A stretch of DNA of 41,482 bases from a virus (lineage: Duplodnaviria > Caudoviricetes): positions 1-41,482 of IMG/VR virus record IMGVR_UViG_3300030095_001216; one strand, given 5' to 3'. Position 1 is the stretch's first letter. Every line of letters begins with the position of its first letter. This document shows, piece after piece, positions 2,593 through 37,024 of the stretch. Position numbers and translations under genes: made by a program. The notes under the pieces are model-generated. The model ran no database searches. It had not been told where the DNA came from and saw only the letters and a list, made by a program, of their open reading frames with translations.

Positions 2593-2609
2593 GGAAGGGG
2601 GCACGGCAA

Positions 2610-4463
2610 ATGCCATTAGTACAATTAACAGCGCCTCCAGGAGTTATCACAGACATAACAGATTATCAGGCGCAGATGCGCTACACGAACGCAGACAAGG
2701 TGCGTTTCTTTCAAGGGTATGCAGAGAAGATAGGCGGCTGGACCAAGAGGTTTAGTTCAGCACAACTCAATGGAGTATGCCGAAAAATATTTCCACACAG
2801 AGATACAGATGGTAGTAAGTTTATATTTATGGGAACATCTACTCACTTCTTTGTTGAGTATGGTGGTCAAGTATATGACATCACGCCATTCAGAACAGAC
2901 CCAGTAAATTTAACTAACCCGTATACTACAGGCGGAGCAGGTACTAATGTTGTTACAGTTACACACAGTAATCATGGTCTAGCTAATACCAGCCCAGGTT
3001 CTCGTGTTGTTATACAATCAGCAGTTACATTTGATGGTGTTACAATTGCAGCACAAGAGTACATAGCTACTTATGTTAATGCTAATCAGTATACTATTGT
3101 AGCTTCTTCAGGCACAGCCACGTCTGGAAGTCAAACAGGTGGAGGCTCTATAACACTTAGATACTTAACTAACAACGGACCAGATGATGGTCTGACAGGT
3201 TACGGTTTTGGTGCTGGTGTATGGGGAGCTTCTTCATGGGGCACAGCCCGTTCTGCTTCTGGTGTTGTATTGTCACCTAGAGTTTGGTCTATGGACGCAT
3301 TCGGTGAAGACATTGTAGCTTCTGTAGGTGGTGGCGAAGATACAATATATTATTTTGATGTCAGTGCTTTTGTAGCAGCTCCTACTACTTATAGGGGAAC
3401 GACACTAGCTTACTATGTAACAAATACTTTAAGTGGTGATGCATCACAAATACCAACTAAGGTTGGACAAGTGTTAGTATCTACACCAGATAGACACTTA
3501 GTAATATTTGGCGCTAACCCACAAGGCTCTACAACTTATGATAGAATGACAATAAGATTTTCTGATCAAGAAAGTTTAAGTACATGGAATGCCCAGATAA
3601 CAAATACAGCTGGTGAACAAAGACTAGGTACAGGTACTAATATAGAAGCAGTAGAAAAAGGACGTGGTCAAATATTTGTTTGGACAGATGCGGACGTATA
3701 TTCTATGCAGTTCATTGGTCCACCTTTTACATTCTCATTCTCTGTGCTAGGAGAAATATCTGGTACTATATCTAAGAACGCGGCTACTACAATCGAAGGT
3801 GCCTCATTCTGGATGGGTGTGGATAACTTCTATATGTATGATGGTGCAGTTAGAACTCTACCATGTCCTGTATTACAACATGTGTTTGATGACTTCAATC
3901 AAGTACAAAGAGAAAAAGTTTTTGCTGGACAGAACATTAAGTTTAATGAGATATGGTGGTTCTATCCATCAGCGGATTCAGATGATATTGATAAGTATGT
4001 AATATATAATTACATAGATAACAACTGGTCTATTGGTACACTAGACAGAACAGCATGGGTAGATTCTAATGTCTTTGCTAATCCTTTGACTACAGATAAA
4101 ACTGGTTTACAATTTAATCAAGAAGTAGGAACAGATAATGCGGGCAGTGCTATCAATGCATTTGTAGAAACAGGTTTCTTTAATGGTGATGCTAATGGAG
4201 ATAGTCTTTATTTTGTAAATAGAGTTATCCCTGATGTTACATATAGTGCAGGTTCTAATATAAAGTTTACTTTAAAATCTAAAGTATACCCACAAGATTC
4301 TGAAATAACTAAAGGACCTTTTACAATATCAAGCACAGATCAAAGACTAGATATGAGAGCTAGAGGCAGATCATTCCAAGCTAGGTACGAATCAGATGCC
4401 ACAGGTGTATCGTGGAGATTAGGAACATGGCGTGCTGAAGGCAGAACAGACGGGGCTAGATAA
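2610..4463 (+). CDS. Podovirus tail tubular/hub protein (P22 gp10-like DNA stabilization protein)
   Basis: 617 aa, beta-rich; NADKVRF..EKIGGW, IRFSDQE, NEIWWFYPS and WRLG motifs; lies just before the ejection genes. Confidence 0.7.
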   Translation: MPLVQLTAPPGVITDITDYQAQMRYTNADKVRFFQGYAEKIGGWTKRFSSAQLNGVCRKIFPHRDTDGSKFIFMGTSTHFFVEYGGQVYDITPFRTDPVNLTNPYTTGGAGTNVVTVTHSNHGLANTSPGSRVVIQSAVTFDGVTIAAQEYIATYVNANQYTIVASSGTATSGSQTGGGSITLRYLTNNGPDDGLTGYGFGAGVWGASSWGTARSASGVVLSPRVWSMDAFGEDIVASVGGGEDTIYYFDVSAFVAAPTTYRGTTLAYYVTNTLSGDASQIPTKVGQVLVSTPDRHLVIFGANPQGSTTYDRMTIRFSDQESLSTWNAQITNTAGEQRLGTGTNIEAVEKGRGQIFVWTDADVYSMQFIGPPFTFSFSVLGEISGTISKNAATTIEGASFWMGVDNFYMYDGAVRTLPCPVLQHVFDDFNQVQREKVFAGQNIKFNEIWWFYPSADSDDIDKYVIYNYIDNNWSIGTLDRTAWVDSNVFANPLTTDKTGLQFNQEVGTDNAGSAINAFVETGFFNGDANGDSLYFVNRVIPDVTYSAGSNIKFTLKSKVYPQDSEITKGPFTISSTDQRLDMRARGRSFQARYESDATGVSWRLGTWRAEGRTDGAR

Positions 4464-4651
4464 TGTCAATCTATAGTAGACCAGCATATCCAGAACCTTC
4501 TTATAAAGAACGAGCCGAAGGTAAGATAGATGTTAGAACGTTTGATACATTAGTACAAGTTTTAAAGTTAAAAGATTTTGCAGAAGAAAGTCCACCTGTT
4601 AAGATAGCAGATCAAACAGAGCAGACTTCTATGAATTGGTTTATGAGTTAA
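4463..4651 (+). CDS. Small virion protein
   Basis: TAATG coupling at both ends; ends in NWFMS. Confidence 0.6.
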   Translation: MSIYSRPAYPEPSYKERAEGKIDVRTFDTLVQVLKLKDFAEESPPVKIADQTEQTSMNWFMS

Positions 4652-4992
4652 TGGCTATAGAATACAAAAGTAAAAAAGTAGATTTAACTACTACAAATAA
4701 TACAGTAATATATACATGCCCAGCTGCAACCAAGACTATAATTAAATCTATATTAATATCAGATGATTCAGGTTCTGGTGACACAGCAACCTTAACTCTT
4801 ACTGACTCTGGTTCTAATATATTTAGACTAAAGAAAGAAGCTGTGGCTGGAGATGCTACAGATGAGATATTAATTAACCCGTTAGTCATGGAAGCTTCAG
4901 AGATATTAAAAGCTCAGGCTGTGACAGCAGGAAGGCTACATGTGATAGTAAGTTTAATGGAGGTAACGAGTGATACAAATAACCCGCTTTAA
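4651..4992 (+). CDS. Small beta-sandwich virion protein
   Basis: Start revised to ATG 4651 (TAATG overlap); YTCPAATKTIIKSI..PLVMEASEILK..S.ME pattern. Confidence 0.65.
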   Translation: MAIEYKSKKVDLTTTNNTVIYTCPAATKTIIKSILISDDSGSGDTATLTLTDSGSNIFRLKKEAVAGDATDEILINPLVMEASEILKAQAVTAGRLHVIVSLMEVTSDTNNPL

Positions 4993-5009
4993 TTTTGCCC
5001 GTGCCCCCC

Positions 5010-6352: not shown

Positions 6353-7248
6353 TGTTAGATTTTTTATTTGGAAGTAAACAAGCACAACAAACTTCTACAA
6401 GTCAAGTACAACTTCCTGATTACATGGAAAAAGCTGCTTCATCTTTAGTAGCAACTGCAGGTGATGTAGCAAAAGAAAATTTTATACCATACACAGGACC
6501 TAGACTTGCGGGCTTCTCTAACCTAGAACAACAGGCTATGAATCAAGCTCAGCAAGGAGCTGGTGTTGGTGGTCTCAGAGGGGCACAGGCATACACAGCT
6601 ACGACAGCCGCGGGAATGCCAGCTGCAACTGACATCTCAACATATATGAATCCATATATGACAAACGTGGCAGATGTTGCTGCTAGAGAATTAACCCGAA
6701 GATCTGAAATGCAACAAGTTGCTAACCAAGCACAGGCTACACAAGCAGGCGCATTTGGTAGTTCAAGAGCGGACATAGTAGAGGCAGAACGCCAAAGAAA
6801 TTTACAACAAGGGCTTGGTGATATTTATACACAAGCACAAGGCAGAGCTTTTGACACAGCACTAAAAGCTGCACAACAAGATAGAAAAACACAACTAGCT
6901 TCTGGGCTAGGTATGGCACAAACTGCAGCAGCAGCTGATACATTAGAAGCATCGGATATTAATAGGCAGTTAGGTATAGGAGGATTGCAAAGAGGCATGG
7001 ATCAATCAGTATTAGATTTAGGTTACCAACAATTTGTACAAGAAAGAGATTACCCGAAAGCGCAACTTGGATTTTACTCAGACATTTTAAGAGGCGTGCC
7101 TACAGGATCAATGACTACTACAACAGGACCAGCTCCACAACAACCTAGTTTGTTTGGGCAGATAGCTGGTGCAGGTATAGGTGCATTGGGAGCAGCAGGT
7201 AACTTAGGATTAACATGGGGTGACATAACAGGATTTGTAAATAGATAA
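6352..7248 (+). CDS. DNA ejection/pilot protein (P22 gp7-like)
   Basis: Ala/Gln-rich; YMNPY, AGAFGSSR and a Gly-rich hydrophobic C-terminus. Confidence 0.65.
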   Translation: MLDFLFGSKQAQQTSTSQVQLPDYMEKAASSLVATAGDVAKENFIPYTGPRLAGFSNLEQQAMNQAQQGAGVGGLRGAQAYTATTAAGMPAATDISTYMNPYMTNVADVAARELTRRSEMQQVANQAQATQAGAFGSSRADIVEAERQRNLQQGLGDIYTQAQGRAFDTALKAAQQDRKTQLASGLGMAQTAAAADTLEASDINRQLGIGGLQRGMDQSVLDLGYQQFVQERDYPKAQLGFYSDILRGVPTGSMTTTTGPAPQQPSLFGQIAGAGIGALGAAGNLGLTWGDITGFVNR

Positions 7249-8477: not shown

Positions 8478-11400
8478 ATGGTAGACATAAACGAATTAAG
8501 ATCTATAGTAGATCAATACAAAACAGCAGATGAGCTTGGTCCAACTAGTTCATTTGAATCTTCTCAAGCCCCAGAAGACCAATTTACATATCATCAAATA
8601 TCAGAAGATCCTTCTGCTCCAATAATAAGAATACCTAAAAGTTTTACACAAGAGCAACGAGAATCTTATCTACAATCTCCCAAGTTATCAGCAGAATTAT
8701 TTTCTAAAGGATTTCTATATCAACCTGGTGTAGACAAAAACGTACGTGCTCCTGCCATAAAAGTAGAAGCTCCTACTATGGATGATAGGGGAGACTTTAT
8801 GCGTAATGTAGAGTCTGCCATGAGTATATATCCAACAATAGTGCAATCAGCTAAAAATATTTTTGGTGATATTTTTAATAATGAAGAGATGATGGAGAAT
8901 AGCCAGAGAGCTATTAATTTATATCAGCAACAAACTGCAGCTAAAAGATTTTTTACAACAGAAGAGGGTGAAGTAAAACCTTATGGGCAAACACTTGAAG
9001 AAATATTTCAAGACGAAGATAAATTATCTGCCTTTATAGATTGGGGTCAAGGGGCACTCGGAAACGCAGTAGTTAGTTGGTTACCTATGATTGTGTTAGG
9101 AGGGGTTGCAGGGTTGGCAGGAGGAGTACCTCTTGCTATAGGTTCTTTAGGTTTTGCAGGCTTCTCATATGGTATAGGTGAAATAAGACCAGCTCAATTA
9201 GAAAATATGGACGACCCTAATACAGCAAATACTCTATTAGGAGCAACTGTCTATGGTACAGCTGAAGCAGTTCTAGGTGGTCCAGGTAGAATACTTAGAA
9301 AAGTATTAACGAAAAAATATGGTAAAGAAACTGCTGATAGCATATTAAAAAGATTTGGAAAAGGCGCAGCAGAAGCTGCACCAGCTGAAGGTTTGACAGA
9401 GGTCATACAAGAAACTGTAACACAAGCTGTTCCTGAATGGGATAAAGCAAATACTGTAGGTGAGGCTATTGATTTAACTAAACAAAAATTATCTGATCCT
9501 GAAGTTCAAAAACAAATAAGAGAAGCTGGATACCAAGGAACATTTGCTGGTGGTGTTTTAGGTGGTGGTACTAACGTAGTTTTAGGAAATAGAAATAGAG
9601 ACGCGTATGAAGCACATAAGAAAAACTTTAAAGCTCAAATAGATTTAGGAGAGATAAGTAATAAAGATCCAGACATACAAGACTTCCAAGGTAAAACAGT
9701 AACAGTAAAAGATATTAGCATTATGCGAGATGCTGATGATAATATTATAAAAGACAAAACAGATAGAGCTGTCGAGCCTACATACACTGTAGTTGGAACA
9801 AAGACAATAGATGGTGAAAAACACGCTGTCTTATTATCTACAAGAGGCGGTGTAAAAAATCCTGTACACATCGTACCTATGAAAGATGTTCCTAATGTAT
9901 TAAATGAATACGCTGAACCTGTTGAAGTTGCTAAGTCAGAAGAAATTAAAGTCGAAGAAGATGCCCCGCAAGTAGGTGATGTGTATCTAGATAGAAGGGG
10001 AGATCCAGTAGTAGTAAAAAGTGTAAGTGAAGAAAATGGAGTATTGTATGATGAAGCTACTCTTGTCAACCCTGTTACAGGTGAACCTCAATTTAAGCAG
10101 GGTATGTCACAGTATAATGATTTTATAAAAACATTTAAGAAACAAGATCCTAAAAAAGTAAAATCAAAAAAAGTAACTTTTGGATCTCCAGAACAAATAG
10201 CTAACCTTGAAAAAGAAATAAAAAATATTAATAATTTAATTGCCAAAGAAAAAGATCCAGCAGCTAAATTAATTTTACAAGAAAATCGCCTTGAGTTAAG
10301 GAGAGAACTACAAAGATTAAAACAAACACAGTACACAACTGAAACTACAATAGATGAAACAAATAAAACTGCAGAAGAAGTTCAAGAGTACGTAAAGCAT
10401 AATACTAACACAGTCAAAGCTGCAAAGAAAAGATTAACTGAGCGCGGATTTAAAGATGTTAAAAAACTTACAGATGATGACGCAGTAGTACTAGCTGAAG
10501 ATAATTTAAATGAAATTAGTGGGAAAGAAAGAGAAGAGCTAACTAAGCTAGGTTATTTTAATGGGCAAAATGGCGAAGCCAAGATACAAAGTTTAGAAGA
10601 AGATATTAAACTAACCGACACTAAAGATAAAACTCGTGGCAGAGCTGAGATAGAAAGAATAATAAAAGATAAGATATCTTTTGAACCTATGAAGGTTACA
10701 CAGAATGTGCAAGTAGGTGAAACCCGCGTGCCCCCTCTGACTAAAGAACAATTAAAACAACAAGGTTACAGTGTAAAAGATTTTGATTATAAAGCAACAG
10801 ACTTTGAAAGAGATATTAGAGCTATAGATTTAGAACTAAGACAAGCACAAACACCAGAACAAATAAATGCCATCAATGAAAGAAAGAGATATCTGCGCTC
10901 TTTATATAGAATAGCTACTCAACCAATTGATTTAAGATATCAAGAGTTAATAAGAGCTATACAAAATAGACCTTTAAACTATATAAATAAACAACTACTA
11001 GATGGTAGCTTTTTTAATACACAACAATTGCCTTCTTTGTTAAGAGGATTAGAGCAACAAATAGAGATTACACAAAACAGAACTAACATATCTCCTGAAG
11101 ATAAGTCACAAGCTCTTAGTTATTTTAACGAACAATTAGAATCTTTAAAACAGTTTAAATCTGATATGGATACTTTACAACTAAGCTTAGGAGTAGATGA
11201 AGTAATACCTTTAGACGAATATCTAACACTTTCTAGGTCTACCAAGGGTATAAGTAAAATAGTAAAAGATATTAAAGGAACTATCCAAAAGAAATATGAA
11301 AAAGAAACAACTGCTTTTTGGTCTGCTAAGAATAATAACCCTAGATTACAAGTTGAATTTATAGAGGATTTACCTGCTATAGAACAAAAGCTTAAAACAG

Positions 11401-14400
11401 AATTAGAAAGATTAGGGTTAACAGGTGTAGACTTAAAAGTATTAGAAGATTATTTTGTAAATAAAAAATCTACAAATGGAGCTTACCTAGTGCATTTAAA
11501 TGTTTTAGATATAGCAGATAGAATGAAAGGGATTGCCATGAAGTTAGCTGGCGGCATGAACTTTGATAAGGCTTTGCTAACTACACCACATAGTATACCA
11601 CAGAATAAAATAATAGTATCTGCTGCAGCAGAAAATCCAATAGCTTTTGAATTAAAACAAGACCCTAGAATGTATACTTTACATCACGAAGTAATGCATT
11701 TACTATTTAACAATGGATTTTTTACAGCAAATGAAGTTAAAGTATTAAAGAATGCAGCTCAAAATTACTGGTTAAAACAATATGACATAGCAGGGTACAA
11801 AACGTACGCTAAAGAATCTAAGGAAATACAAATAGAAGAAGCTATATCAGAGGCGTTTGCCGCATACATGGCTAATAAATATCAACCTCGTGGCGTAATA
11901 GCTTCTTTATTCTATAGATTAAAAGCATTCTTAAATGGATTAAGTAATGCGTTATTTAGCACAGGGTACACTTCCCCTGAATCTATATTCAATGCAATAG
12001 ATTTAGGGAAAATACAAAATAGAAAGTTTAATAGAGAAAGCACAGATCTTGTGGATGTTGCCTACAAAAATTCCGCTTACTTATCAGACACATCTCAAAG
12101 TAATTTTGATAAATTCTTTAGTGGGTCAAAGGTTAAAGGGGGCACGGATGAGGGAACTCTAGGTGTAGGTCCTTCTATTACAAACGTTTACTTAAACACT
12201 TTGTACAATAGTCCGTTTTATACAAACACAAGAACAAGAATATTAAACAGGTTAAACGAAAGAGCCGCTACTTTAGAAAGTTTAGATTTAGTGCCTTTAG
12301 TAGATAGACTGTTTTCATACTACAATTTATTAACTGGTAGTGAAAATGGAACAGGTATCCCTACGACTAGCAACCTTGTAGAGATGAATAAACTTGTAGC
12401 AGAGATGCGTGAGCTAGCTCAAAAAGCAGACATAACAAACATGACACCTGATAAATTTGTTGGCACTACTACAGAATTAAATTTTATAGAAAGATTAGAA
12501 ACTGCTTCTATTACTCCATTGCAAAAAATTACACTAAGATCAATAGCAGCTATAGTTAATATGAACAATCCAGGTCTCTTACCTCAAAACGATACAGAAC
12601 TTAAAACTGCTAGAGATACACTAGTGAATGAATTAAATTATATATTTGCAAATAAATTAGCTAACACACATCTTACACAAGCCAACAGCCCTCTAATAGT
12701 TTTTCACGGAACAGACAGAGACTTTGAAGAGTTTTCAAAGTATAGAGATTTCTTTTTTCATTTTGGTTCGCAAACAGCTGCAATAGCTAGAGCAGATTAC
12801 ATTACCAAGAATTACAATTCATTTCGTAGGTCTGATAACGATAGTAAGATTATGCCCTTCTTTTTAAATTTAAAAAATCCTTTATTGATGAGGGATTTAG
12901 GTAGTTGGGATGCTAGATCTATATTAAGATCTTTAACTAATGATAAAGATCCTAAAGGAGCTAGACTATTTAGAGATAAAGGTACAGGTTTAACATTTCA
13001 TACTATTAAAAATGACATGGGTAAAGCGGGTAGCGTTATTTACGGTGACACAATTGATGTATTAAATCAATTAATATTTACACCAGAAGAAGCTAAAAAT
13101 ATAGAAGCACAAATGGATGTGGTATATAACAGATTAATGGATCAAAGGGCTAAGACCGAAGCAGAAAGCACAAGATTGGAAGATCCTTACGAATCATATC
13201 TTAAAACAGAAAAATTAAAAAATGATGTTGGTGCTAGAATAAATACAGAGTCAGATAAAATAATTGTAAAAGCAATTAAAGATAAAGGATATGATGGTAT
13301 TGCTTATTTAAATTCCACAGAGATGGGTAGTTTAGATATAGCTCCACAATATTCATACATAGCCTTTGATGCTACACAAATAAAACATGCAACAGAAAAC
13401 TCTGGTGACTACGATGTAAGTTCTCCTAAATTTAGACGCTCAGATAAATATGAACAAGACCCTTCAGAGATAGATCAAGATCAACCTCCTACATATACCA
13501 GACAAAAATTTAGACAACAAGAAAAATCTATGGATAAACTTATTAAAGATGATGATAAGTTATTAGACCAAAATGATAGAGCTGATGAAGAAACTAAAAC
13601 AAAAAGATTTGGAAACTTTAATAGGATTATGTCACATGCTAGAATATGGGCGCAACAGTTTCCAATATTTACTCCGCTATTTAATATAGTAAGAAGCAAG
13701 CAAGAATTTGTTAACACTTTAAATACCCGAGCAGTAGATAAATTGACAGAAAACTTTATACCTTTAATGCGTGACCCCGAAGCTTCTAAATTGCTTATGA
13801 AAGCTATGGAAATATCACAGCAAGTTCCTGGAAGATACAGACCAAACGAATTAGGCGACATAATTTTTGTTGCTAGAGAAAATGGAAGAGGCGCAGGAAG
13901 CACAGTTAAAGCAGGAGAAACAATTACTCTTACAGGGCAAGCAGCGGCTGCTTATTTAGATGTGCAAGAACAGATACAGTTACAACATAAAGAAATTATT
14001 AGAGGAATGTTAGCTAATGAGAATGTAAGCAATATTATAAAAGAAGCAATAGCTATACTAAGAAATAATAGAAAAGACTTACTTGATAACCCTATTTTAA
14101 ATTTAACAAGTGATCAACTGGAAAGTTTAGAATACAATGATTTGCGTTTTATAGTTAATGAATTACAAAATACTTCTACTTACTTACAACCCAGTGGATT
14201 ATATAGCAGAGATTTATTTAATAAAGTATCATCTATAATAAGTAAAACAAAAGTTAAAAGAGATGCTGTAGGAAATCCTGTAAGTGCAGACAAAACATCT
14301 GCAGGATTGTCAGGTATTTTACAAGAGCTAGGTCAATACAATAGGTTTAAACAAAACGATTATATTCCATTACAGAGGTACGGTAACTTTTTTATAGCAG

Positions 14401-21197: not shown

Positions 21198-21236
21198 AAA
21201 AGAAAAAGGGCTGATCCCAATGAAGAAAATCAGCCC
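21198..21236 (-). terminator. Intrinsic terminator
   Basis: GGGCTGAT..ATCAGCCC stem followed by TTTTTCTTTT on the minus strand. Confidence 0.65.
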
Positions 21237-21334
21237 CTTATACGGTTGTGGAAGTGGTTCCCCAAACTGTTTCTAAATATTTCATCTAGAAGAAGTAAGG
21301 TTCTTTGTGCCCCCCTGTCTCCGTTGTTAGTCTT

Positions 21335-21363
21335 ATTATATCAAAAGATATAACATTTGTCAA
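21335..21363 (-). promoter_or_regulatory. Consensus sigma70 promoter
   Basis: TTGACA-17 nt-TATAAT overlapping the nrdB stop codon. Confidence 0.75.
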
Positions 21364-22336: not shown

Positions 22337-24094
22337 CTATGCCTCGCACGCGGCGCAGGCGGTTTCGTCTGTGTCAAAGTCTTGTCTAATTGTTCTCTCT
22401 ATTTTACTAGATAAGTTCTCTACTTTCTTAAGTGATTGACTTCTCATGTAGTATAGAGTTTTAACTTTATTTTTCCACGCTCTCAAGTGTATACCGTGTA
22501 GTGTTTTAGTATCTACATCTGGTGGTAAAAATAAATTTAAACTTTGTGATTGGCAAATATACTTTTGCCTATCTGCTGCTAGGTCTATAAGCCACCTTTG
22601 GTTCATCTCAATAGCAGTTTTAAATACTTCTTTATCTACATCAGATAGAAAGGATAAGTGTTGAACACTACCACCATTAGTCACAATAGATTTCCATACT
22701 TCTTTATTATTTCTATCGTACTTTAGTAGTACCTTTTCTAAGTATTTATTCTTCATTAAGAATGTACCACTCAAAGTCTTTTGAGAAAAAGCATTTGCTC
22801 TTAGTGGTTCTATAGATGGAGAAGTTCCCCCACAGATTACTGATGAAGAAGCATTAGGAGCAATGGCGATGACATGTGAATGTCTTAGTCCTGTGCCTTC
22901 CATATCTGCAGGTGAACCCCTCTCTGCCCCGAGCTTCTTGTTAGCAGCTTGAGCCTCGTTGTGTATATGCTTAAAGGTATAATCGTTTATAGACTTAGCC
23001 ATAGGACTATCCATAGATATACTTCTCTTCTGAAAATAGCTATGTAATCCCATTGCACCTAAACCTATTGCCCTTTCGCAACGCGCAGAATTGACAGCTC
23101 TCCACATGTAATCGGGAGCGTCCTTAATAAAAGTTTCTAACACATTGTCTAGCATACGTACAATATCTTCTATGAATTGTGGGTTATCTTTCCACTCATC
23201 AAAATATTCTAAGTTAACAGAAGACAAACAACACACAGCAGTTCTATCTTTAGCTGTAGGTAATGTAATCTCTGAACATAAATTAGAATGATTAAACTTT
23301 AAACCTAGTTTCTTTTGTGATTCTGGTAGAGCTTCGTTAACTGTATCAATAAAACTTATGTATGGTTCACCTGTAGCTATTCTAGTTTCAAGTAATTTAA
23401 TCCATAAAGTTCTGGCATCTATTGTCTTTATAGTTTGTTTAGTATGAGGATCAATTAAATCCCAAGACTCACCTTCAGTTACAGCTTCCATAAACTTATC
23501 AGATACATTTACACCATGATGTAAGTTAAGATTTTTTCTATGTATGTCTCCGCCTGTCGGCTTTCTCATCTCAATAAATTCTATAATTTCTGGATGGGAT
23601 ATATCCATATAAGAAGCATAGCTTCCTCTTCTAGTAGCGCCTTGATGAAACGCAGTCATCTGTGAATCAACAACATGCATGAAAGGAATGACACCTGTAG
23701 TTTTGTTTCCAATACTTGTAGCCATACCTTGTGATCTTACATCACCCCAGTAGCCTCCTATACCACCGCCCATACTAGACAACCAAATGTTCTCAGTATA
23801 GTGGTCCGCTAATCCTTCTCTAGAATCATCCACGTAATTTAAGAAACAAGATATAGGTAGTCCACGCGTAGTGCCCCCATTGGATAACACAGGAGTAGAG
23901 AACATAAACCATAGTTTACTTGCATAATCATATAACCTTTGTGCATGAGCTTGATCGTCTGCAAATGTCTTTGCAGCTCTGGCAAATGCATCTTGAGGAC
24001 TAGCCTCCGTTGGTAGTAAGTATCTATCTTTGAGTATAATCTTGCCCGATTCGGTTAAAAAATTATCACGTGAGTATTCTATATTTATTTTCAT
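22337..24094 (-). CDS. nrdA: Ribonucleotide reductase class I alpha subunit (no ATP cone)
   Basis: LPISCF, GGGIG, SNLCSEI, VCCLSS, APNASSS, KTLYY and C-terminal CAAC. Confidence 0.95.
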   Translation of the reverse strand: MKINIEYSRDNFLTESGKIILKDRYLLPTEASPQDAFARAAKTFADDQAHAQRLYDYASKLWFMFSTPVLSNGGTTRGLPISCFLNYVDDSREGLADHYTENIWLSSMGGGIGGYWGDVRSQGMATSIGNKTTGVIPFMHVVDSQMTAFHQGATRRGSYASYMDISHPEIIEFIEMRKPTGGDIHRKNLNLHHGVNVSDKFMEAVTEGESWDLIDPHTKQTIKTIDARTLWIKLLETRIATGEPYISFIDTVNEALPESQKKLGLKFNHSNLCSEITLPTAKDRTAVCCLSSVNLEYFDEWKDNPQFIEDIVRMLDNVLETFIKDAPDYMWRAVNSARCERAIGLGAMGLHSYFQKRSISMDSPMAKSINDYTFKHIHNEAQAANKKLGAERGSPADMEGTGLRHSHVIAIAPNASSSVICGGTSPSIEPLRANAFSQKTLSGTFLMKNKYLEKVLLKYDRNNKEVWKSIVTNGGSVQHLSFLSDVDKEVFKTAIEMNQRWLIDLAADRQKYICQSQSLNLFLPPDVDTKTLHGIHLRAWKNKVKTLYYMRSQSLKKVENLSSKIERTIRQDFDTDETACAACEA

Positions 24095-24143: not shown

Positions 24144-25400
24144 TCATAACTTGATTGGGAACACAAGCCCGTCTTTAACTTGAATGTATCCAGCCTCTTC
24201 CATAGCCCTAACTGTTTGCTCTGATTCGCCTGGTGCGAGAGTTCTTCGAAGTAATTCGCGCTTGAAGTGGCGCAGACTTATGAAGTTTCTCTCTGTATTT
24301 AGCATAGTTTCTTTAGTCCAGATTGCCATATCCTGTGCTAGCTTACCCGCTCTAGCCATACCAAACCCTGCCAATGCTTTAGGCATAGCTTCTTCTACTT
24401 CAAACATAAGGTCTTTAGTTCTTTGCCAATGATCCCAAGTAATTACTTTCTGTGTAGAACAACTTGCAGACACAGCCAAAGCTACTTTAATAAAGTGTGA
24501 TACTCTACGTTGAGTATACTCAGCTAAGTTAGGGTCTGTAGGTATAGGCTTTAAGCCAGATTCTATATCAAGATTGATCTTATCAAATGCTCTGTCATCA
24601 AAGCGCATAGGTCCGTACATCTTTGCTATCTCTGACAAGTCGCATCGTAAGTTATGTATAGTAGAATCTTCTACTCTATCTTGTAATAAAGATTGTGGTA
24701 TTTTTTCCCCGTCAAAAAAGACAGGTATAATTCTTGATAACAAACCTTGTGACCTAGCGTCTTCGGGCAAGTTATCAACAAACTGTTCGGGTGTAGCACA
24801 TGCTATCCAATTTAAACAAGGACCTTTTATTATATGCTCACCTGCGGTTTTAGTTTTATGTGAGTACTCTTCTTTACTATCCCACATATCAGTAAGAAAC
24901 ATTTGTAAATATCTTTCATGTCTGTGTAAGAATGTACCTAACTCTGATGTAACTAATGTTAATGACCCATCATAAAACTCATCACCTATTGTAGATAAAC
25001 GCATATCAAATCTAGATGCCTTAGACATATCTACTGCTAACTTCTCTGGTGTTATTCTATCTTGTATACAATACAAAGGATACTCTTTTAAACCGTATTC
25101 AGTTAAGCCAGAGTTAAAATTTTCATGGTCTGGTGTAGTACCTACAGGTGTAGTTAGCTTACGAAATACTTTAGTAAATGGTAGAATCAAACTGACTGAT
25201 TTATTACGCCCAGGTCCAGCCACTAACACAACGAATATATTGGCACGTATATCGTAGTTAGCCATAGGCATCCAGACTCTTCTACCTAGTGCACCAGACA
25301 CAGATGACAGAGCCGCCCACCTTCTAAACAGTTTAGGTATAGGACTTTTACTAGTAGCATCTACGCATGCTTCGATGTAGTCTTTATATATTCTAGACAT
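24144..25400 (-). CDS. DUF3987/YfjI-like P-loop ATPase (putative replicative helicase)
   Basis: SP.P..F..W..LS..SGALGR.VW; Walker A-like GPGRNKS; SELGTF; LTDMWD; GLLSR arginine finger. Confidence 0.65.
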   Translation of the reverse strand: MSRIYKDYIEACVDATSKSPIPKLFRRWAALSSVSGALGRRVWMPMANYDIRANIFVVLVAGPGRNKSVSLILPFTKVFRKLTTPVGTTPDHENFNSGLTEYGLKEYPLYCIQDRITPEKLAVDMSKASRFDMRLSTIGDEFYDGSLTLVTSELGTFLHRHERYLQMFLTDMWDSKEEYSHKTKTAGEHIIKGPCLNWIACATPEQFVDNLPEDARSQGLLSRIIPVFFDGEKIPQSLLQDRVEDSTIHNLRCDLSEIAKMYGPMRFDDRAFDKINLDIESGLKPIPTDPNLAEYTQRRVSHFIKVALAVSASCSTQKVITWDHWQRTKDLMFEVEEAMPKALAGFGMARAGKLAQDMAIWTKETMLNTERNFISLRHFKRELLRRTLAPGESEQTVRAMEEAGYIQVKDGLVFPIKL

Positions 25401-26943
25401 TGTGCCCTCCCTTCCATGTTTTTAAATTCTTCCAAGTGTTACCAACTTCTACAGAAGAAGGAATGATTAACTCTCTATCTTGCACAACCATAGGATTAGT
25501 CATGCAGTTAACTATCTTAGGCATCAACTCGTCTACCTTCTCATTAGGTACTTGACCTAGGATAGCATCGTGCACCTGTCCTAAGACTTGTACACCTTCA
25601 TCTTGCAACTCATTCCATACTCTATACAGTCCTATATTTAATAGATCACCTATAGTAGATTGAGGTACATAAGCAATAGCACCACGCAATGTAGTAGCAT
25701 CATTGAGTCTACCCCAGAATTGTCTACGCCTACCCAGTGGTGTAGTAAGCGTTCCAGTATTTGATAGCTCATTTGCTATACTGTCATGCCACTTCCTGAT
25801 TCCAGGGAAAGCGCCTGGAACATCCAGGTATTTAATCTTATCACCATATACTTTACCATATGCTAGAAGCTCATCAAAACCAGCTTTAGGATCTTGTTTA
25901 TGCCACCTATTAACTGATTCTAAGGCTACTACACCACCATAATACAGCAGTTGGAACCTTGTAGCATGCGCTACTTTAATCTTTAAATGCCTAGCTAATG
26001 ACGTAGCTGACAAGCCATAGTTAGTACCATGACCTGCACGTTTACACATATCTCTAAAACTAAACTGTAAATAGTAAGGGTTCTCAGCAAGCTCTCTTTC
26101 TTGTGCAGGATCACCGCTCCAACCCATGTTTTTCCAAACCATTTTAACAACAGTAGTATGCAAGTCACCACTCTCACAAGCATTGATGTACCCCTCGTCA
26201 CCTGTAAGATAAGCAACCACACGGGATTCAGCTTGCTCTAGATCAGCGTAGAACATAGTCATACCTTCATCGGGTATAAATATTTCGCGCAAGTCTTTTG
26301 TTATATTTTGAAGATTAGTTCCTGTACCCCAAGGGGCTTCTGAAGAAGACCAACGCCCTGTCTCTGTGCCTGCCACATTATAAGAACAACGTATTCTATT
26401 GTCGTTATCTCTGTCTGTGTCCAGCACACCAAGGTGTTTGTCTATGTCACGTAATGCAAGAATAGCATTACAAAAAGGTTTTGCTCGTGGATAATTTTGG
26501 CGCATGTATTCAAGCGCTTCACGATCTGTTGAAACTTTTTGCTTACCTTTCTTATAAGACATAACTTTAGGTATGCCTAAGTGTAGGTAAAATAAATTCT
26601 GTAATTGTTTAGGTGATGCATGGTTTAGATCTTTACCTGTTGCCGCGTTTGCAAACAAGTTAAGCATGCGTTCTAGTTTAACTCTGGTATCTTTCAAGGG
26701 GGCACGCATATTTTTAACTGCGTCTAAGTCCACACGTAATCCTTTTAACATCATAGCCATAGCAGGCTTGATGCTATCTAACTCAAAGTTGTATGTGCCT
26801 GTGGTGGTATCGTCTAGATCTGTCTTGATCTTCTGCCAAATCTCTTGGGTGACTGCACAATCTAATGCACAATAAGTCCAGAGTGTTTGTTCAGAATCTA
26901 GATCTATGTTTTGAATGTCTACATTCTTTATTATTTTTGCCAT
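25393..26943 (-). CDS. polA: DNA polymerase family A (polymerase domain plus ExoIII motif only)
   Basis: TETGRWSS, NLQN, motif A DLEQAESR, motif B RDMCKRAGHGTNYG, motif C QVHDA; N-terminal YCALD. Confidence 0.92.
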   Translation of the reverse strand: MAKIIKNVDIQNIDLDSEQTLWTYCALDCAVTQEIWQKIKTDLDDTTTGTYNFELDSIKPAMAMMLKGLRVDLDAVKNMRAPLKDTRVKLERMLNLFANAATGKDLNHASPKQLQNLFYLHLGIPKVMSYKKGKQKVSTDREALEYMRQNYPRAKPFCNAILALRDIDKHLGVLDTDRDNDNRIRCSYNVAGTETGRWSSSEAPWGTGTNLQNITKDLREIFIPDEGMTMFYADLEQAESRVVAYLTGDEGYINACESGDLHTTVVKMVWKNMGWSGDPAQERELAENPYYLQFSFRDMCKRAGHGTNYGLSATSLARHLKIKVAHATRFQLLYYGGVVALESVNRWHKQDPKAGFDELLAYGKVYGDKIKYLDVPGAFPGIRKWHDSIANELSNTGTLTTPLGRRRQFWGRLNDATTLRGAIAYVPQSTIGDLLNIGLYRVWNELQDEGVQVLGQVHDAILGQVPNEKVDELMPKIVNCMTNPMVVQDRELIIPSSVEVGNTWKNLKTWKGGHNV

Positions 26944-26960: not shown

Positions 26961-27179
26961 CTAGTCGTAGTCTCTTTCAATAATCATATCTATATAGTGT
27001 TTAGCTTTTTCTAAATCTTGTTTGCCTCCCTTCAATGCGTGTCTGCATATGTACTTTATAGCATTACCTTCTGCGAATAATAATTTATTACCATTAATAA
27101 ACATTGAAGGTTGTATCTCGTAATCTTGGTAGTGGTCACCACCTACTTGCGTAGAGTATGCGTCATCTGTAGAGCTCAT
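26961..27179 (-). CDS. DUF3310 protein (T7 gp1.7 nucleotide-kinase-like family)
   Basis: QVGGDHY..EGNAIKYICR..KGG..DLEKA.HYI. Confidence 0.8.
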   Translation of the reverse strand: MSSTDDAYSTQVGGDHYQDYEIQPSMFINGNKLLFAEGNAIKYICRHALKGGKQDLEKAKHYIDMIIERDYD

Positions 27180-27450
27180 CCTGTCCTCCTATAATTTCAA
27201 AAATCTTTTGTCTTGTATTGTGCGCATGTAAAAAAGAATAGTCGCACACTATAATAAAATCTTCTGTCTTTCCTCTCAGCCATATCTTGGCACGTTCCTT
27301 GTTGGCTATACTTTCTCTTGACTTGTTTGTTGATAAGAAGTCTGATATCGCTAGGTCAATGACGGATCTCCACAACCGCACTTCACTTTCGATAGTTACT
27401 AAATCATTTGGTATATGTAACTCCGAAAAATATGGAGCACGCTTGTACAT
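27163..27450 (-). CDS. Hypothetical protein
   Basis: E.RLWRSVI..AI.D..A..W..DF..VC motif common in phage small proteins. Confidence 0.65.
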   Translation of the reverse strand: MYKRAPYFSELHIPNDLVTIESEVRLWRSVIDLAISDFLSTNKSRESIANKERAKIWLRGKTEDFIIVCDYSFLHAHNTRQKIFEIIGGQDELYR

Positions 27451-27458: not shown

Positions 27459-28547
27459 CTATTCATCTCTCTTAGTACTCTTTGAAAACTTAGCCATAGT
27501 TTTCCAAGCACCCTCGTTTGTGTATATAGAACCAAGAAAGCCTAAGCCCTTCTGTTGTTCTGGCTGTAGCGCATGTTGAGCATGCATTGTATCGTGTATC
27601 TTACCTTTAACATTTATGTTCTGCTTATAAGATAACCATGACACATCATACGTTTGGTTCTGTGCAACCTTAGTAATCTTTTCGTTTTCTAAAATTCTTT
27701 TAACCCAAGCCCATGCCTGTTGCTCATGCTTATTATCTTTCCAATAGTTTTGTAAAGCATTTCTTGTATCTTTAAATGGTATAACTAAAGCAACGGAATC
27801 AGATGGAGCAAAACCAATACAAGTAATAAAACCTCCACTAGTTTCAATGTCAAAGCTAAGTGGGCTAGCTTCATTGTCTTCTCGTATATATTGTTCTTCA
27901 AATTTATTAAGGTCTTCGATAGTAGGTTCAATCCATAACTCTCTTTCTTTTATTTGTATATCGGGTGTCTCAGATTCTGCTATTGCTTTCTTAATATCTG
28001 AAAGAACAACAGGTCTGAAGTCAAAGTTTCTTATCACGGCACTAGGGCTAAAGGTAGGCAAGACTTTTGTTCCCCCTGTGAGGTTAGATTTAAGAACAGT
28101 TCCCCTGTAAGTTCCTATCTTATCTAGCCCTGTCAGCGCCCATAACGCGATACTTCCCATTGCAATAATTACATTAGGTTTGCACGCGTTAAGCTCGGTC
28201 TCTAGTCTATCTATCTCTCCCTCGTATTCTTCTTTCAAGAAGCCGAAGCCATTCACAGGAAACTTCGAGCGACTCTTCCCCTCTTTAAGCAAAGCTTTAT
28301 AAGAGTTTTTATTATTGAAGAAGTGTGCAGGATTCTCCTGTGCTGGCTTCTGAGAGAGAGCATAAGTGAGCAAACAGTTTTCCACATTTAGGTTTAATAT
28401 CTCACACATCTTGTGAAACATTTTACCTGTACTACCAACCATGATTTGACCAAGACGTTGTTCATCTGTACTTGGAAAGTCAAAGACGAACGCGATCATG
28501 GATTGACCATTGCTTGGTTGCTGTGAAGGAACTGTCTGCTTTGTCAT
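27459..28547 (-). CDS. Family-4 UDG-like domain fused to a partial DnaQ 3'-5' exonuclease (ExoI and ExoII)
   Basis: G..MVGSTG, KPNVIIAMG..A, I..YRG and PTFSPSAVIR (UDG fold); SFDIET, AQNQTYD and HDTM (exonuclease). Confidence 0.8.
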   Translation of the reverse strand: MTKQTVPSQQPSNGQSMIAFVFDFPSTDEQRLGQIMVGSTGKMFHKMCEILNLNVENCLLTYALSQKPAQENPAHFFNNKNSYKALLKEGKSRSKFPVNGFGFLKEEYEGEIDRLETELNACKPNVIIAMGSIALWALTGLDKIGTYRGTVLKSNLTGGTKVLPTFSPSAVIRNFDFRPVVLSDIKKAIAESETPDIQIKERELWIEPTIEDLNKFEEQYIREDNEASPLSFDIETSGGFITCIGFAPSDSVALVIPFKDTRNALQNYWKDNKHEQQAWAWVKRILENEKITKVAQNQTYDVSWLSYKQNINVKGKIHDTMHAQHALQPEQQKGLGFLGSIYTNEGAWKTMAKFSKSTKRDE

Positions 28548-28548: not shown

Positions 28549-28986
28549 CTAGAGTATTCTTTTTACTGAGGCTTGTAGAATATCTTTATTCTTACCAACC
28601 ATTTCGTGCTTGATTAAACCCTTAAAGGTTTTACCAATTGCCATTTCTAGCAACTCACTATATGGTAAGTCATCTACATGACCCATGTCCAGTCCACTTG
28701 TAAGGAAAGACTTTAATCCTGTAGCAGGATTCTTAACCTTCAAGGCATTAGGTGTAGCCCAGAACTCCATACGTGTGGGTTCTGCATTACCTAGTTTGTC
28801 GTCAGTTAGGTCTGAATCAATCACCCCAACTGCTTTGACATTTAGTCTGATGAGTGGTGTTGAGTTTTCCCCAACCTCATCTGCTCTGTAAGATGTCACA
28901 GAGAATTCATAACTACCCTCGGGAAGTACAACCGATTCGGGTGTATCTTGAGGTGTCATGTTTAAAAAGTCAGCAACGTTAGACAT
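28549..28986 (-). CDS. Putative ssDNA-binding protein (DUF669-like)
   Basis: LPEGSY motif; follows the Sak4-like ATPase, the usual arrangement. Confidence 0.6.
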   Translation of the reverse strand: MSNVADFLNMTPQDTPESVVLPEGSYEFSVTSYRADEVGENSTPLIRLNVKAVGVIDSDLTDDKLGNAEPTRMEFWATPNALKVKNPATGLKSFLTSGLDMGHVDDLPYSELLEMAIGKTFKGLIKHEMVGKNKDILQASVKRIL

Positions 28987-29789
28987 TATTTATCTCCTTT
29001 CGAATTGCTCTCTTTGAGTTTTGCCTTTGCATTTTTCTGAATAGAATCAAATAGCTTACTTAAATCTAATTCGATATTAGGTTCTATTAAAGAAGGCGCT
29101 GTAACTTTCAGATCCATTTTATGATCTGACATTGTACGTATCGTGCGCTCTGTTCCTTTACTAGATGATCTAGTATCTATTCTGCAAACACAGTTAAAGT
29201 ATCTACCAATCTTAGTTGATAGCTTAGAACCCACGGAAGTTGGGTATGCTTTTGACACACCTAAATCACCTTCCATATACTGCATGTGTGCTGTCACAAC
29301 AACATTACACTTCACTTCATCGCCTGTAATGTACTGTATAATATTCTGCACATCACGCGCTGCAGCACCCCATTCTGGTTGGCTAGCTTGTTCAGTAGGT
29401 TTCCTGTTATTAAAAACGAGAGCGGCTCGTAGGGCAGCCTCCCCCATAAGTGTTAGGGAGTCAATCACTAGAACCGTATCCTCTCCCCATTCTTTCACGT
29501 GACCCAAGTCTTCATCACCGTCTTTCCAATGAGACAACAATCGTGCCCCTCTTCTAAACGAATCAGCTTGAGCTAGTGAATCTCTTAACGTAACATATGA
29601 GACGTTCTTTACTGCTTCTGGTTTCAGAAACTCTGGCAGTATGTCAAGTCCGTCATCATAATCTAGTATACGTAGCTTCTTACCTGCGTTAGCTAAACTC
29701 GCTAGGGCAGATGTCTTACCACTACCACTGTCTCCGCAGAGAAGTAGCTTAGTAACACTCGTAGATTTATGTTTACTTATATTTGCCAT
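28986..29789 (-). CDS. AAA_24/Sak4-like ssDNA-annealing ATPase
   Basis: GDSGSGKT, ILDYD.G, VIDSLT and VVVTAH. Confidence 0.8.
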   Translation of the reverse strand: MANISKHKSTSVTKLLLCGDSGSGKTSALASLANAGKKLRILDYDDGLDILPEFLKPEAVKNVSYVTLRDSLAQADSFRRGARLLSHWKDGDEDLGHVKEWGEDTVLVIDSLTLMGEAALRAALVFNNRKPTEQASQPEWGAAARDVQNIIQYITGDEVKCNVVVTAHMQYMEGDLGVSKAYPTSVGSKLSTKIGRYFNCVCRIDTRSSSKGTERTIRTMSDHKMDLKVTAPSLIEPNIELDLSKLFDSIQKNAKAKLKESNSKGDK

Positions 29790-35037: not shown

Positions 35038-35082
35038 ATTATAATCCTTTCGATAATAAAGTCAAGTTGATATTGTGTCGCA
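35038..35082 (-). promoter_or_regulatory. Promoter with upstream TGCGACA box
   Basis: TGCGACACAATATCAA, then TTGACT-16 nt-TATAAT. Confidence 0.55.
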
Positions 35083-35283
35083 GTCTTCGAGTATACACGA
35101 CATGTTCTCGGAATAAATCCGAGGGTCTATAAATTAACAGATCAGACCCTTATGCCCCTCTAATATATGAATTAAAATATAATATAATATATTTATATAG
35201 TATATAAATGGACACAGCACTATCGTTTCTGCCAACCCTCGTGTTTATGTCGGAGATATGTCGCATATCTACGTGAGGAAAGC

Positions 35284-36078
35284 CTATGCTAACTGCTGAT
35301 ATCCGTGCTCATTAAACGAGTTGACATTTGGACTGTCAAATGTTGGGCGGATATTGCCGAAGCCGTTCATGTAATTAACATAGGATAAACTTCTTGCCAT
35401 TTGTAATTCATTCGGTCTAGGAAATGGCACACCCACTTCTAGTATAGAAGTTTCGCTAAGAATACTACCACCATTCACAAAGTGTGGTATCTTTTCTTTA
35501 GCTACGGGATATAGGTTAGGATATGACCTCCATACGTTAGGCATTTTAAGTATCTTACGCATGGTTGCATGATGTTTTTCTTCAGCTAGTGCATTTGCTA
35601 ACCATTCTTCCCTGTCTATTTTAACACCACGCATACCAAGTATATATGTAGTATCATATAAGTTCTTTCTTTTATGATTAGGATATACTGTCGTGTTGTA
35701 TTTTTTAACTAGCTCAAGCATTGAACTGTTTGTTGACATCACTTCGAACGGGTGAACACCATCAGAAATCGCGGGTTTGACTTTGATTATAATGAACTCT
35801 ACTTGTTTCATATATCCATTGCCATTCCAACGAGTATGATCTCTTGCTATGGCAGACCAATCATGCCCTTCATATTCGAAGTCCTCATTCTGTGAGCCTA
35901 GTCGTCTGCCTCTGTTGGTAGTCAACACCCATGTGCTTTTGCGTTTAACCATAGTAAAGGTTTGTTTGTTGTCTACATATCCTTGATAGACACCCTTATC
36001 ATCAGCATGATATTCGGGTCTATATCCTACAATGTTTATGCTACCCACTGGAGTCGGGTATAGTTTTACATTAGTCAT
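35284..36078 (-). CDS. Hypothetical protein in the amidoligase operon
   Basis: Start revised to MTNVKL, with AGGGGG as RBS. Confidence 0.65.
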   Translation of the reverse strand: MTNVKLYPTPVGSINIVGYRPEYHADDKGVYQGYVDNKQTFTMVKRKSTWVLTTNRGRRLGSQNEDFEYEGHDWSAIARDHTRWNGNGYMKQVEFIIIKVKPAISDGVHPFEVMSTNSSMLELVKKYNTTVYPNHKRKNLYDTTYILGMRGVKIDREEWLANALAEEKHHATMRKILKMPNVWRSYPNLYPVAKEKIPHFVNGGSILSETSILEVGVPFPRPNELQMARSLSYVNYMNGFGNIRPTFDSPNVNSFNEHGYQQLA

Positions 36079-37024
36079 TTTTCGTGCCCCCTTTCTTGTT
36101 TGATCGTGCATCTATTAAGTGGTCGATTGCATCATACATATCCATTTCATCAGCAGTCACTAGATCACCCAGCATTTCTGCTGTGCCCATTGGGTTGTGG
36201 TATATGACCTCTGATATATCAGCCTGTGATAATCCAACCAGATCAGCTAGATTGTATGGCGTGTTATCATCACAAAGATCTACAGATTTTTTCGCGTTTG
36301 CTTTGCTTGTCCATTTATCATAGTTGTATATATCATCAGCATAGCTGTAGTCTGTAGCATTGTATCCGTTAAACCATGACTTGTTGTATGATGTGATTGC
36401 TTTTGGTTGCGTAGATATGGTGTCAGTCTTGACATCATAATCACTACCCATACCGCGTTGTATGGAGTATGTATTTGATAGCCACATACTATCCATTGTT
36501 TCACCATGATCTTCGTTGATGATTGTGAACTTACCATTACTTCCGTCAAGGAATAATAGTTTATCAGAGCCAATAGATTCTTCAATCATATCCCTCCAAT
36601 CCGAATTGTATAACAGTTCGGGATTGTGTGCTAACATTGGTCGTAATATCCACTTCACATATTGATGTGTATCTGATTTGTCTACATCAATCATTGGTGT
36701 TGGTAATTGCGGTCCGTTGTGCATAACCCATATAGATCTGTTATGCTGTTTCATATTAAGCACTTCAAATGGGTGGCAGTTTGATCTGTTAGTTCCACCA
36801 TTAGTTGTGAATCTGAAGTGCAATCCCATTGGGATATTCATATCTTTGTATCTATCCCATAGAGATACAACATCACCCTCAGTTTTAGGGAGATGTTTAA
36901 ATGTTTGTATCTTGCCGTCAGCAAGAAACATACCACCAAATCCGTCAGAATTATTGTGATATGCTGATGTCAGTAAGTTTTGTTTTAACTCACTAGCATT
37001 GTCTGATTTAATAATTAAACACAT
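36071..37024 (-). CDS. Class II (Ntn) glutamine amidotransferase
   Basis: N-terminal MC nucleophile, N.DGFG, HFR.TT.G, NCHPF, MHNG, SDT and SN. Confidence 0.88.
   Translation of the reverse strand: MCLIIKSDNASELKQNLLTSAYHNNSDGFGGMFLADGKIQTFKHLPKTEGDVVSLWDRYKDMNIPMGLHFRFTTNGGTNRSNCHPFEVLNMKQHNRSIWVMHNGPQLPTPMIDVDKSDTHQYVKWILRPMLAHNPELLYNSDWRDMIEESIGSDKLLFLDGSNGKFTIINEDHGETMDSMWLSNTYSIQRGMGSDYDVKTDTISTQPKAITSYNKSWFNGYNATDYSYADDIYNYDKWTSKANAKKSVDLCDDNTPYNLADLVGLSQADISEVIYHNPMGTAEMLGDLVTADEMDMYDAIDHLIDARSNKKGGTKND

Follow-up and report, generated by a model that had tools for sequence, protein, structure and literature searches.

The stretch of DNA analysed here (hereafter the window; positions 1 to 41,482 of the IMG/VR virus record IMGVR_UViG_3300030095_001216) covers 41.5 kb of the roughly 60-kb genome of a podophage, whose relative G001 measures 60.6 kb and is rated complete. 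It belongs to a clade of aquatic podophages of about 60 kb that encode an MCM-like helicase and a split family A DNA polymerase (PolA), and in which no primase was detected. The replication genes form a block consisting of a Sak4-like gene, a 145-aa open reading frame (ORF), a uracil-DNA glycosylase (UDG)-like/exonuclease subunit, a small ORF termed X, the PolA domain, a DUF3987 helicase and ribonucleotide reductase (RNR). Dispersed over both strands of this DNA is the octamer GGGGGCAC, one copy of which lies in the leader of a predicted small RNA, and it is the relationship between this RNA and the dispersed word that is discussed here.

The earlier note on the window, which was made from the sequence alone, had listed eleven exact copies of GGGGGCAC, and all of them were recovered at the positions and on the strands given there (five on the plus and six on the minus strand; Table 1). 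The five variants with four Gs and the two occurrences of GGGGGCAAC (6338 and 33095) that it reported are likewise present, and the word is read as KGGT, ERGHG, RVPP, MRAPL, NGGT and MVPPD, as it had stated. The same holds for the positions of single copies: those at 2597 and 36084 stand at a ribosome-binding site (RBS), the one at 5001 adjoins a −35 element, and the one at 21307 lies in a candidate small RNA, the unit being bounded by a promoter and a terminator. Its description of the flanks as 5′ A and 3′ G stood only in part, since the 3′ G does not belong to the clade-wide core (G follows GGGGCAC in 14 of 45 independent site groups). In 100 dinucleotide shuffles, GGGGGCAC reached a mean of 0.22 and a maximum of 2 copies, as against the 11 observed. 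The enrichment also survives a codon-preserving null, as had been proposed for a check: 2000 synonymous-codon shuffles covering 58 hand-listed ORFs of the window gave a mean of 0.28 and a maximum of 5 copies, with 16 observed against 1.3 expected for GGGGCAC and 7 against 0.016 for AGGGGGCACG. The window copies occur in sense orientation in genes, in antisense orientation in genes, and between genes.

Table 1. Word copies, predicted RNA unit and replication genes in the window
Feature	Position	Strand	Context
GGGGGCAC	2597..2604	+	intergenic; RBS position before ATG at 2610
GGGGGCAC	5001..5008	-	intergenic; directly upstream of the −35 (TTGTAA-17-TATAAT) of a plus-strand promoter; arrangement found in 7 records
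GGGGGCAC	10728..10735	-	antisense in 2723-aa gene (RVPP)
GGGGGCAC	12138..12145	+	sense in 2723-aa gene (KGGT)
GGGGGCAC	16962..16969	-	sense in helix-turn-helix (HTH)-phosphoesterase gene (AGGTG)
GGGGGCAC	17715..17722	+	antisense in HTH-phosphoesterase gene (MVPPD); 12/12 orthologs share the GTG and CCC codons
GGGGGCAC	20225..20232	+	sense in 212-aa gene (ERGHG); GGG in 13/13 orthologs
GGGGGCAC	21307..21314	-	promoter-linked copy, in leader of predicted RNA
GGGGGCAC	23871..23878	-	sense in nrdA (NGGT); lineage-restricted, GGC in 6/31 orthologs
GGGGGCAC	26698..26705	+	antisense in polA (MRAPL); CGT 46/46, GCC 46/46, CCC 44/46 orthologs
GGGGGCAC	36084..36091	-	gene overlap, RBS position
4-G copy GGGGCAC	3238..3244	+	
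4-G copy GGGGCAC	6580..6586	+	
4-G copy GGGGCAC	9051..9057	+	
4-G copy AGGGGCAC	29543..29549	-	in Sak4-like gene; GGG and GCA invariant in 31/31 orthologs
4-G copy AGGGGCAC	40260..40266	-	
Predicted small RNA, ~131 nt	21198..21328	-	leader ending GGGGGGCAC, A-rich linker, covarying inner stem, terminator hairpin; ends inferred from promoter and terminator
Sigma-70 promoter TTGACA-17-TATAAT, 12/12 consensus	21335..21363	-	before the RNA; overlaps nrdB stop
Intrinsic-terminator-like hairpin and T tail	21198..21239	-	stem 21239-21205
DUF3987 helicase	24144..25400	-	MCM-like AAA+ fold; C-terminal element reads as winged helix
Family A DNA polymerase domain	25393..26943	-	~40-aa insertion specific to the word-bearing clade
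ORF X, 95-aa orphan	27163..27450	-	in every distant word-bearing lineage tested; candidate partner
UDG-like and 3′-5′ exonuclease subunit of split polymerase	27459..28547	-	candidate trimmer of annealed RNA

That selection acts on the DNA rather than on the protein, as the earlier note had argued, is supported by the codon null, by the reading contexts (the word is found in five or six of the six) and by fixed synonymous positions. At four-fold degenerate columns inside the word, the third base equals that of the window in 277 of 321 cells and 7 of 12 columns are invariant, as compared with 3261 of 6644 cells and 15 of 265 columns in the comparison set of other GC-ending four-fold columns; the sequences compared are related, and word columns covered by a sufficient number of orthologs were available for 5 of 14 genes. 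When conservation and turnover were followed in the relatives, as that note had suggested, synonymous positions proved constrained and sites were both gained and lost, the copy in nrdA being lineage-restricted and a copy in nrdB that is common in relatives being missing from the window. Copies recur about every 2 kb over both strands, that is about every 4 kb per strand, and the per-strand spacing is even in G001, G002, G417 and on the minus strand of the window (coefficient of variation 0.26-0.60, p ≤ 0.04; G416 was excluded because of duplicate matches). As had been noted, the word is not polarised to one strand (5 plus and 6 minus in the window; 14/15, 16/13 and 10/15 in relatives), and with respect to genes the sites divide into 194 sense, 90 antisense and 71 non-coding ones, in a tally that contains duplicate matches in G416. 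The stoperators of mycobacteriophage L5 have one orientation relative to transcription, and the 194 sense and 90 antisense sites thus speak against the stoperator-like function that had also been considered. Neither hairpins nor AT-rich flanks gave a consistent signal at the sites (mean z-scores from −0.7 to +0.9). Divergent close pairs were considered as origins and dropped, being significant in only 2 of 16 records (G002 and G003).

The dispersed word is a real, selected and clade-wide DNA signal. All 55 loci of the first search for relatives carry the octamer, and among the 25 loci longer than 11 kb it is the top 8-mer in 19, an overlapping word being on top in 3 and neither in the other 3. 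GGGGCAC occurs 29, 29 and 25 times in G001, G002 and G003, in balance between the strands, while its reversed control occurs 0 times. Subclades at 65% PolA identity or more share GGGGGCA, one of them with a preference for G as base 8. Lineages further away that still have the PolA insertion use two-strand words of their own, and such words were found in 7 of 8 distant records, the remaining one being 4 kb in length: AGTGGGGGAWWGGAGAC in G416 (AGTGGGGGA 16 times against 0.7 expected) and also in L154, TGGAGGGATTTGG in G417 (15 in 36 kb) along with a second word, GGGGGCGG (16 against 2.4), AGGAGGGGTGGCG in L332 (9 against 0.3), and AAGGGGAGCAAG in L376, L230 and L378. Such lineage words reach 13-17 bp in length. 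Among loci without the PolA insertion (56 and a further 16, plus six named phages), no G-run word of equal strength was found, the best being GAGGGAC in Kuura (33 against 9) and GGCGGGCA in L267 (8 against 0.7). Besides this word of Kuura (L057), weaker two-strand words occur in the primase-less outgroups PaP2 (L068; AGGCTA, 85 against 34) and L387 (CCTCAAG, 29 against 6), and these words may represent short priming signals or codon-pair effects. As an observation of its own, L378 has a further dispersed word besides AAGGGGAGCAAG; this palindrome, CTTTAAAG, frequently takes the form GCTTTAAAGC and lies within genes in several frames (13 copies in 21.5 kb against 0.8 expected).

The 21307 copy is placed some 20 nt behind the promoter and about 70 nt ahead of the terminator of the predicted RNA (z-score −2.9 in the window; predicted length 55-130 nt across the clade). 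The earlier note had spotted this copy, but missed its possible key role. Over 19 records, a promoter stands 3-33 nt upstream of 14 of 411 sites, with exactly one such site in each of 14 records; four of the 5 records without a promoter-linked copy end in or before RNR, and G417 is the exception. In those records for which gene maps were made (the window, G001, G007, G416 and L378), the promoter-linked copy follows the RNR genes. In G007 (C1:20894-22807), a single 637-aa gene without BLAST match to nrdA or nrdB takes the place of both, and the RNA unit comes directly after it. A short promoter-to-terminator unit with the word is present in 8 of 13 records and is the sole such unit in 7 (chance about 0.01 per record), and in four further records of the 13 the script called no terminator, though a hairpin follows the word. 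The 61 outgroup loci contained 8 promoter-terminator units, none of them with an enriched leader. A search of viral contigs for the promoter followed by AGGGGAGCAA returned 55 loci, none of which had the helicase or X, was clearly enriched for the word or added a lineage; promoter and word alone can thus arise by chance.

In three lineages the leader carries the lineage's own word, that is GGGGGGCAC/G, AGTGGGGGATTGGAGAC in G416 and L154, where it starts 6 nt after the −10, and TAAGGGGAGCAA in L378; the leader forms recorded are AAGGGGGGCAC, GGGGGGCAG, AGTGGGGGATTGGAGAC and TAAGGGGAGCAA. The shortest RNA forms of about 55 nt consist of the leader, an A-rich bulge, a strong stem and a U tail, and in most folds the end of the word lies in or beside the A-rich bulge. 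In the window's lineage, 6 of 14 pairs have changed on both sides (18 such cells; 0 of 500 shuffles reach the score), in a test that takes the structure from the window's own fold and uses related sequences. For 18 short forms the mean z-score was −5.1, and stem sequences and loop lengths vary while pairing is kept; these stems were compared by script, since loops of unequal length misalign. A search of the whole window against Rfam covariance models gave no match at E ≤ 0.5, and RNA contigs of four runs left the RNA locus uncovered, the phage being barely present in those runs. In G417 (C1:32570-32971), a 400-bp intergenic region holds a promoter-linked copy of GGGGGCGG (32867, minus strand) followed by likely hairpins, and as GGGGGCGG is the second dispersed word of this genome, G417 may carry two systems. 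A description of the word or of the RNA was not found in the literature, where coverage of subscription papers and supplements was limited. A predicted small RNA whose leader co-evolves with a genome-wide word found no match in our searches, and the link to the RNA is what makes the finding of the dispersed word new.

The leader and the sites can be compared base by base. At base 8, the sites have C and G in a ratio of 199:20 under a C leader and of 22:49 under a G leader, and their majority agrees with the leader in 24 of 24 leader-C and 6 of 9 leader-G records. Immediately past the shared end, the sites prefer G where the RNA has A (67% in the window, 42% in G003, 70% in L378 and 38% in G416), and at position 1 only the change from G to A, the G-T wobble class, is enriched (39 against 4.4 expected). 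The preference for G after the word and the tolerance of A at position 1 would fit pairing that is followed by extension. The RNA and the many dispersed sites are identical over no more than 8-17 nt.

As for the replication genes, the model of the DUF3987 helicase, which is alignment-based with a predicted local distance difference test (pLDDT) score of 96 (33 from the single sequence), matches MCM subunits, and the protein carries the PHROG label 'DNA primase', yet its predicted fold is MCM-like. No viral relatives of the L376 helicase were found. A primase domain of the DnaG or archaeo-eukaryotic primase (AEP) type was detected neither in the ORFs of the window nor in 26 extra ORFs of the complete G001, though a highly diverged one could escape. 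The 145-aa ORF (28549-28986) may encode a single-stranded DNA-binding protein. Motif B of PolA has a histidine four residues after the lysine (KRAGHGTNYG), which is invariant in 52 of 52 aligned clade members; phenylalanine, tyrosine or leucine is usual at this place. DUF3987 is classed as MCM-like (Kazlauskas et al.) in passages of PMC4889955, which also name phage 119X as primase-less with possibly non-canonical priming, and this phage carries the same helicase-PolA pair as the window. UDG-PolAs and HTVC023P-type phages are described in PMC10201439 and PMC9599517, in passages that mention neither the word nor the RNA.

We favour, with a probability of roughly one in two, the reading that the dispersed copies are annealing and priming sites for the predicted small RNA, whose leader would be a ready-made primer that replaces a primase. 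Put forward a little more tentatively is the wider scheme of a primase-free system, in which one hairpin RNA would supply an 8-17-nt leader as universal primer, the word stands on both strands every few kb, and RNA and sites co-evolve. Because of this co-evolution, each lineage would possess a private priming code, with synthesis starting only on phage DNA. The host RNA polymerase would transcribe the 55-130-nt RNA, and the leader would be freed with a 3′-OH at the A-rich bulge where the word ends, either by a host RNase, with RNase III and RNase E, which have roles in RNA cutting, as candidates, or by trimming after annealing, perhaps by the exonuclease subunit of the phage. The leader would then pair with the C-rich strand (GTGCCCCC) as this is exposed by the MCM-like helicase, and PolA would extend it, with G preferred as the next base. 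Sites about 4 kb apart per strand would set the starts of Okazaki fragments for forks moving in either direction. The preference for G after the word is what one might expect at the end of a primer; according to passages of PMC7581432, dGTP is the usual first nucleotide of the primase CCPol-MP, and T7 RNA polymerase, too, preferentially begins with G. Among three options that the earlier note had offered, priming signals in a primase-less phage fit best, whereas a Chi-like mark and a role in packaging or ejection fare poorly.

A number of observations weigh against priming by the RNA. Covariation of leader and sites is equally expected if a protein reads all the copies, records within one lineage are not independent, and an RNA-DNA duplex of 8-10 nt is short. 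Of the 9 leader-G records, only 6 show more G than C at base 8; at one position of the G416 sites, A is found in 75% against U in the RNA of that genome, and the sites of G003 and G412 retain a 5′ A while the RNA reads U there. The word's final base is loose in G007-type and G412 genomes, which is awkward for a primer end unless this is trimmed. Sites adjoin a −35 in 7 records and sit in promoter spacers in 4, which are operator-like positions, and the spacing is not significantly even in G003 or in most loosely defined site sets. G417 (36% complete) has 15 copies of TGGAGGGATTTGG, none of them promoter-linked, and only its second word GGGGGCGG has one such copy. Lastly, a comparable word or RNA was not found in the primase-less outgroups PaP2 and Kuura, so that the DUF3987-PolA module can prime otherwise.

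It is rather unlikely, though to be taken seriously, that a phage protein reads the word and that the promoter-linked copy is an operator, an attenuator or a decoy RNA. The reader could be a primase like CCPol-MP, made up of PolA and ORF X as its small partner, which would start de novo at the C-run, or else a DNA-binding regulator or a self-loading MCM. PolA-small-protein primases exist (PMC7581432, PMC10061031), sites occur at operator-like promoter positions, several site preferences diverge from the RNA, and both X and the PolA insertion co-occur with the word: by BLAST, X is present in 15 of 16 word-bearing records against 0 of 36 others, and a hidden Markov model (HMM) adds X in L378. 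Over a larger set, the HMM found X in 197 of 211 loci sorted by rule as insertion-bearing and in 1 of 80 others (L254), the 14 misses being distant loci (24-41% identity) that are apparently mis-sorted. However, L254 has an X homolog but no word, RNR co-occurs as well as X does (15 of 16 against 1 of 36), and 48 of 301 proteobacterial genomes contain X homologs, for which inspection of 12 loci by eye showed no evident replication neighbours. No candidate protein tracks the word: the PolA insertion is alike (RWHKQD..GGF) across lineages with different words, the C-terminal domain of the helicase differs between L376 and L378 despite their shared word, and the change from CAC to CAG is accompanied by 5-11 scattered substitutions in the helicase, the exonuclease subunit, Sak4 and PolA, without an evident cluster. 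A protein reader also leaves unexplained the conserved, covarying RNA and its consistent A where the sites have G.

ORF X itself looks helical by alignment; it had no Pfam match and no convincing match in PHROG or the PDB, the ESM Atlas yielded nothing usable, and DUF6280 (0.87) is a lead only. In the proteobacterial genomes mentioned above, its family (L429-L440) often has 2-3 copies, and at four loci the next gene encodes a basic motif of the RRRGRPK type. The HTH-phosphoesterase was considered as a general reader and rejected, because it had a BLAST match in 0 of 7 distant word-bearing records, including the complete G416.

Improbable, in our view, is that the RNA pairs with the sites as an uncut guide rather than as a primer, be it for loading the helicase, for directing Sak4 and the PD-(D/E)XK exonuclease, or as a self mark. 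All covariation between RNA and sites fits a guide equally well, a loose 3′ base and internal mismatches are more easily accommodated, and the RNA body is conserved and structured. Yet with a guide the absence of a primase would still lack an explanation, a scan of the ORFs of the window and the 26 extra ones of G001 gave no RNA-guided effector domain, and the preference for G right after the word fits extension.

That the word is a Chi-like or other self mark read by the host, as the earlier note had entertained, is highly improbable, even though it is a GC-rich asymmetric octamer on both strands and the host search was confined to proteobacteria. In none of 401 proteobacterial genomes does it come near the phage density, the highest value read from the tables being about 81 per Mb (about 62 for the reversed control) against about 400 per Mb in G001. 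Moreover, the word changes with the phage lineage (five words along the PolA lineage), reaches 13-17 bp and matches the leader of the phage's own RNA. It is because the word follows the phage and because the host densities are low that a host Chi mark is to be regarded as unlikely. A host search in genome contigs brought up one 2.7-kb contig in a Neptuniibacter metagenome-assembled genome, which was not taken as the host. Separately, the outgroup phage locus L317 is enriched for GCTGGTGG (8 against 0.6 expected), which we take to be the Chi word of E. coli.

There is similarly little to recommend packaging and ejection signals, or nicks in the virion DNA of the kind known from T5, phiKMV and tf. 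Phage tf has 14 copies of an asymmetric 9-mer, and one virion protein of the window has a weak homolog in tf, yet the nick words described in passages of PMC3517423 are on one strand only, whereas the word here is balanced, and the copy in the RNA would be left unexplained. An organising role in packaging or ejection, which had also been suggested, is disfavoured because in HTVC027P, one of whose virion proteins is related, no comparable word was present in the 50 kb examined out of 57.6 kb. Finally, the view that the word simply results from codon use, protein motifs or Shine-Dalgarno sequences, for which some copies at RBS positions and the excess of sense over antisense sites (194 against 90, with 71 non-coding) could be quoted, is already refuted by the codon null, the five or six of six reading contexts and the fixed synonymous positions.

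With respect to the phages themselves, 14 of 24 listed runs of marine metagenomes hold at least half of the words (2 of the 14 are possibly the window's own source), and one virion protein is 35-37% identical to its counterparts in HTVC023P/027P, DSL-LC04 and CRP-901. A probable internal virion protein of 2723 aa (8478-16649) contains an ART-PolyVal (ADP-ribosyltransferase) domain at residues 1404-1644, and a gene pair for a glutamine-amidotransferase-like protein and an amidoligase (36071-38277) is kept across the clade, including the distant G416. In G416 (C1), the same site context is found at both ends of the record (near 725 and 66125), which suggests a terminal repeat some 1.7 kb long with one copy of the word inside it.

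How lagging-strand synthesis starts in double-stranded DNA phages without a primase is an open question, which passages of PMC4889955 raise for phage 119X. If priming by the RNA is true, a trans-acting, sequence-programmed primer RNA would be a route of priming apart from DnaG, AEP and self-priming polymerases, altering the leader should shift the start sites, and an abundant marine phage clade could copy its own DNA and not that of the host. Even with a protein reader, a small RNA leader that co-evolves with a genome-wide DNA word stays unmatched in our searches.

In known cases of priming by transcribed RNA, ColE1 RNA II primes in cis at one origin through a long hybrid, and a retroviral tRNA primes at one binding site. 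The RNA proposed here would resemble them in being transcribed and structured, and in priming DNA synthesis after cutting or annealing, but as a single RNA it would act in trans at about 30 short sites over both strands, and the dispersed RNA-site identity of 8-17 nt differs from the long hybrid at a single origin. The DnaG-type primase gp4 of T7 reads sites of the form 5′-(G/T)2GTC-3′ with a 3′ flank, about 26 of which are active in T7 (PMC12839067). The words here are likewise short, asymmetric and genome-wide (about 29 per 60 kb), and they have the both-strand spacing at Okazaki scale that sites of DnaG or AEP primases have; in contrast to T7, no encoded primase was detected, the words of 8-17 bp are lineage-specific, and one copy opens a predicted RNA.

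With the CCPol-MP or PolA-SSB primases of SCCmec, the clade shares a PolA with a truncated exonuclease part, a small neighbouring gene, a helicase and the lack of a canonical primase. CCPol-MP starts mostly with G opposite C (PMC7581432, PMC10061031), but follows no strict consensus and favours a site at a single origin, whereas the sites here are genome-wide; its partner MP is an OB fold, whereas X looks helical and the exonuclease subunit is encoded separately. The Pseudomonas phages 119X and PaP2 also have an MCM-like helicase beside PolA and no primase (passages of PMC4889955), but phages of this type are without the PolA insertion, a detected X, a comparable word or a detected RNA unit. 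The nick motifs of T5, phiKMV and tf (passages of PMC3517423) are dispersed asymmetric words of 7-20 bp as well, though confined to one strand, while those of this clade are on both. Taken by analogy, the layout works like that of the T7 priming sites and the idea resembles priming by ColE1 RNA II or tRNA, yet the system is a member of neither class.

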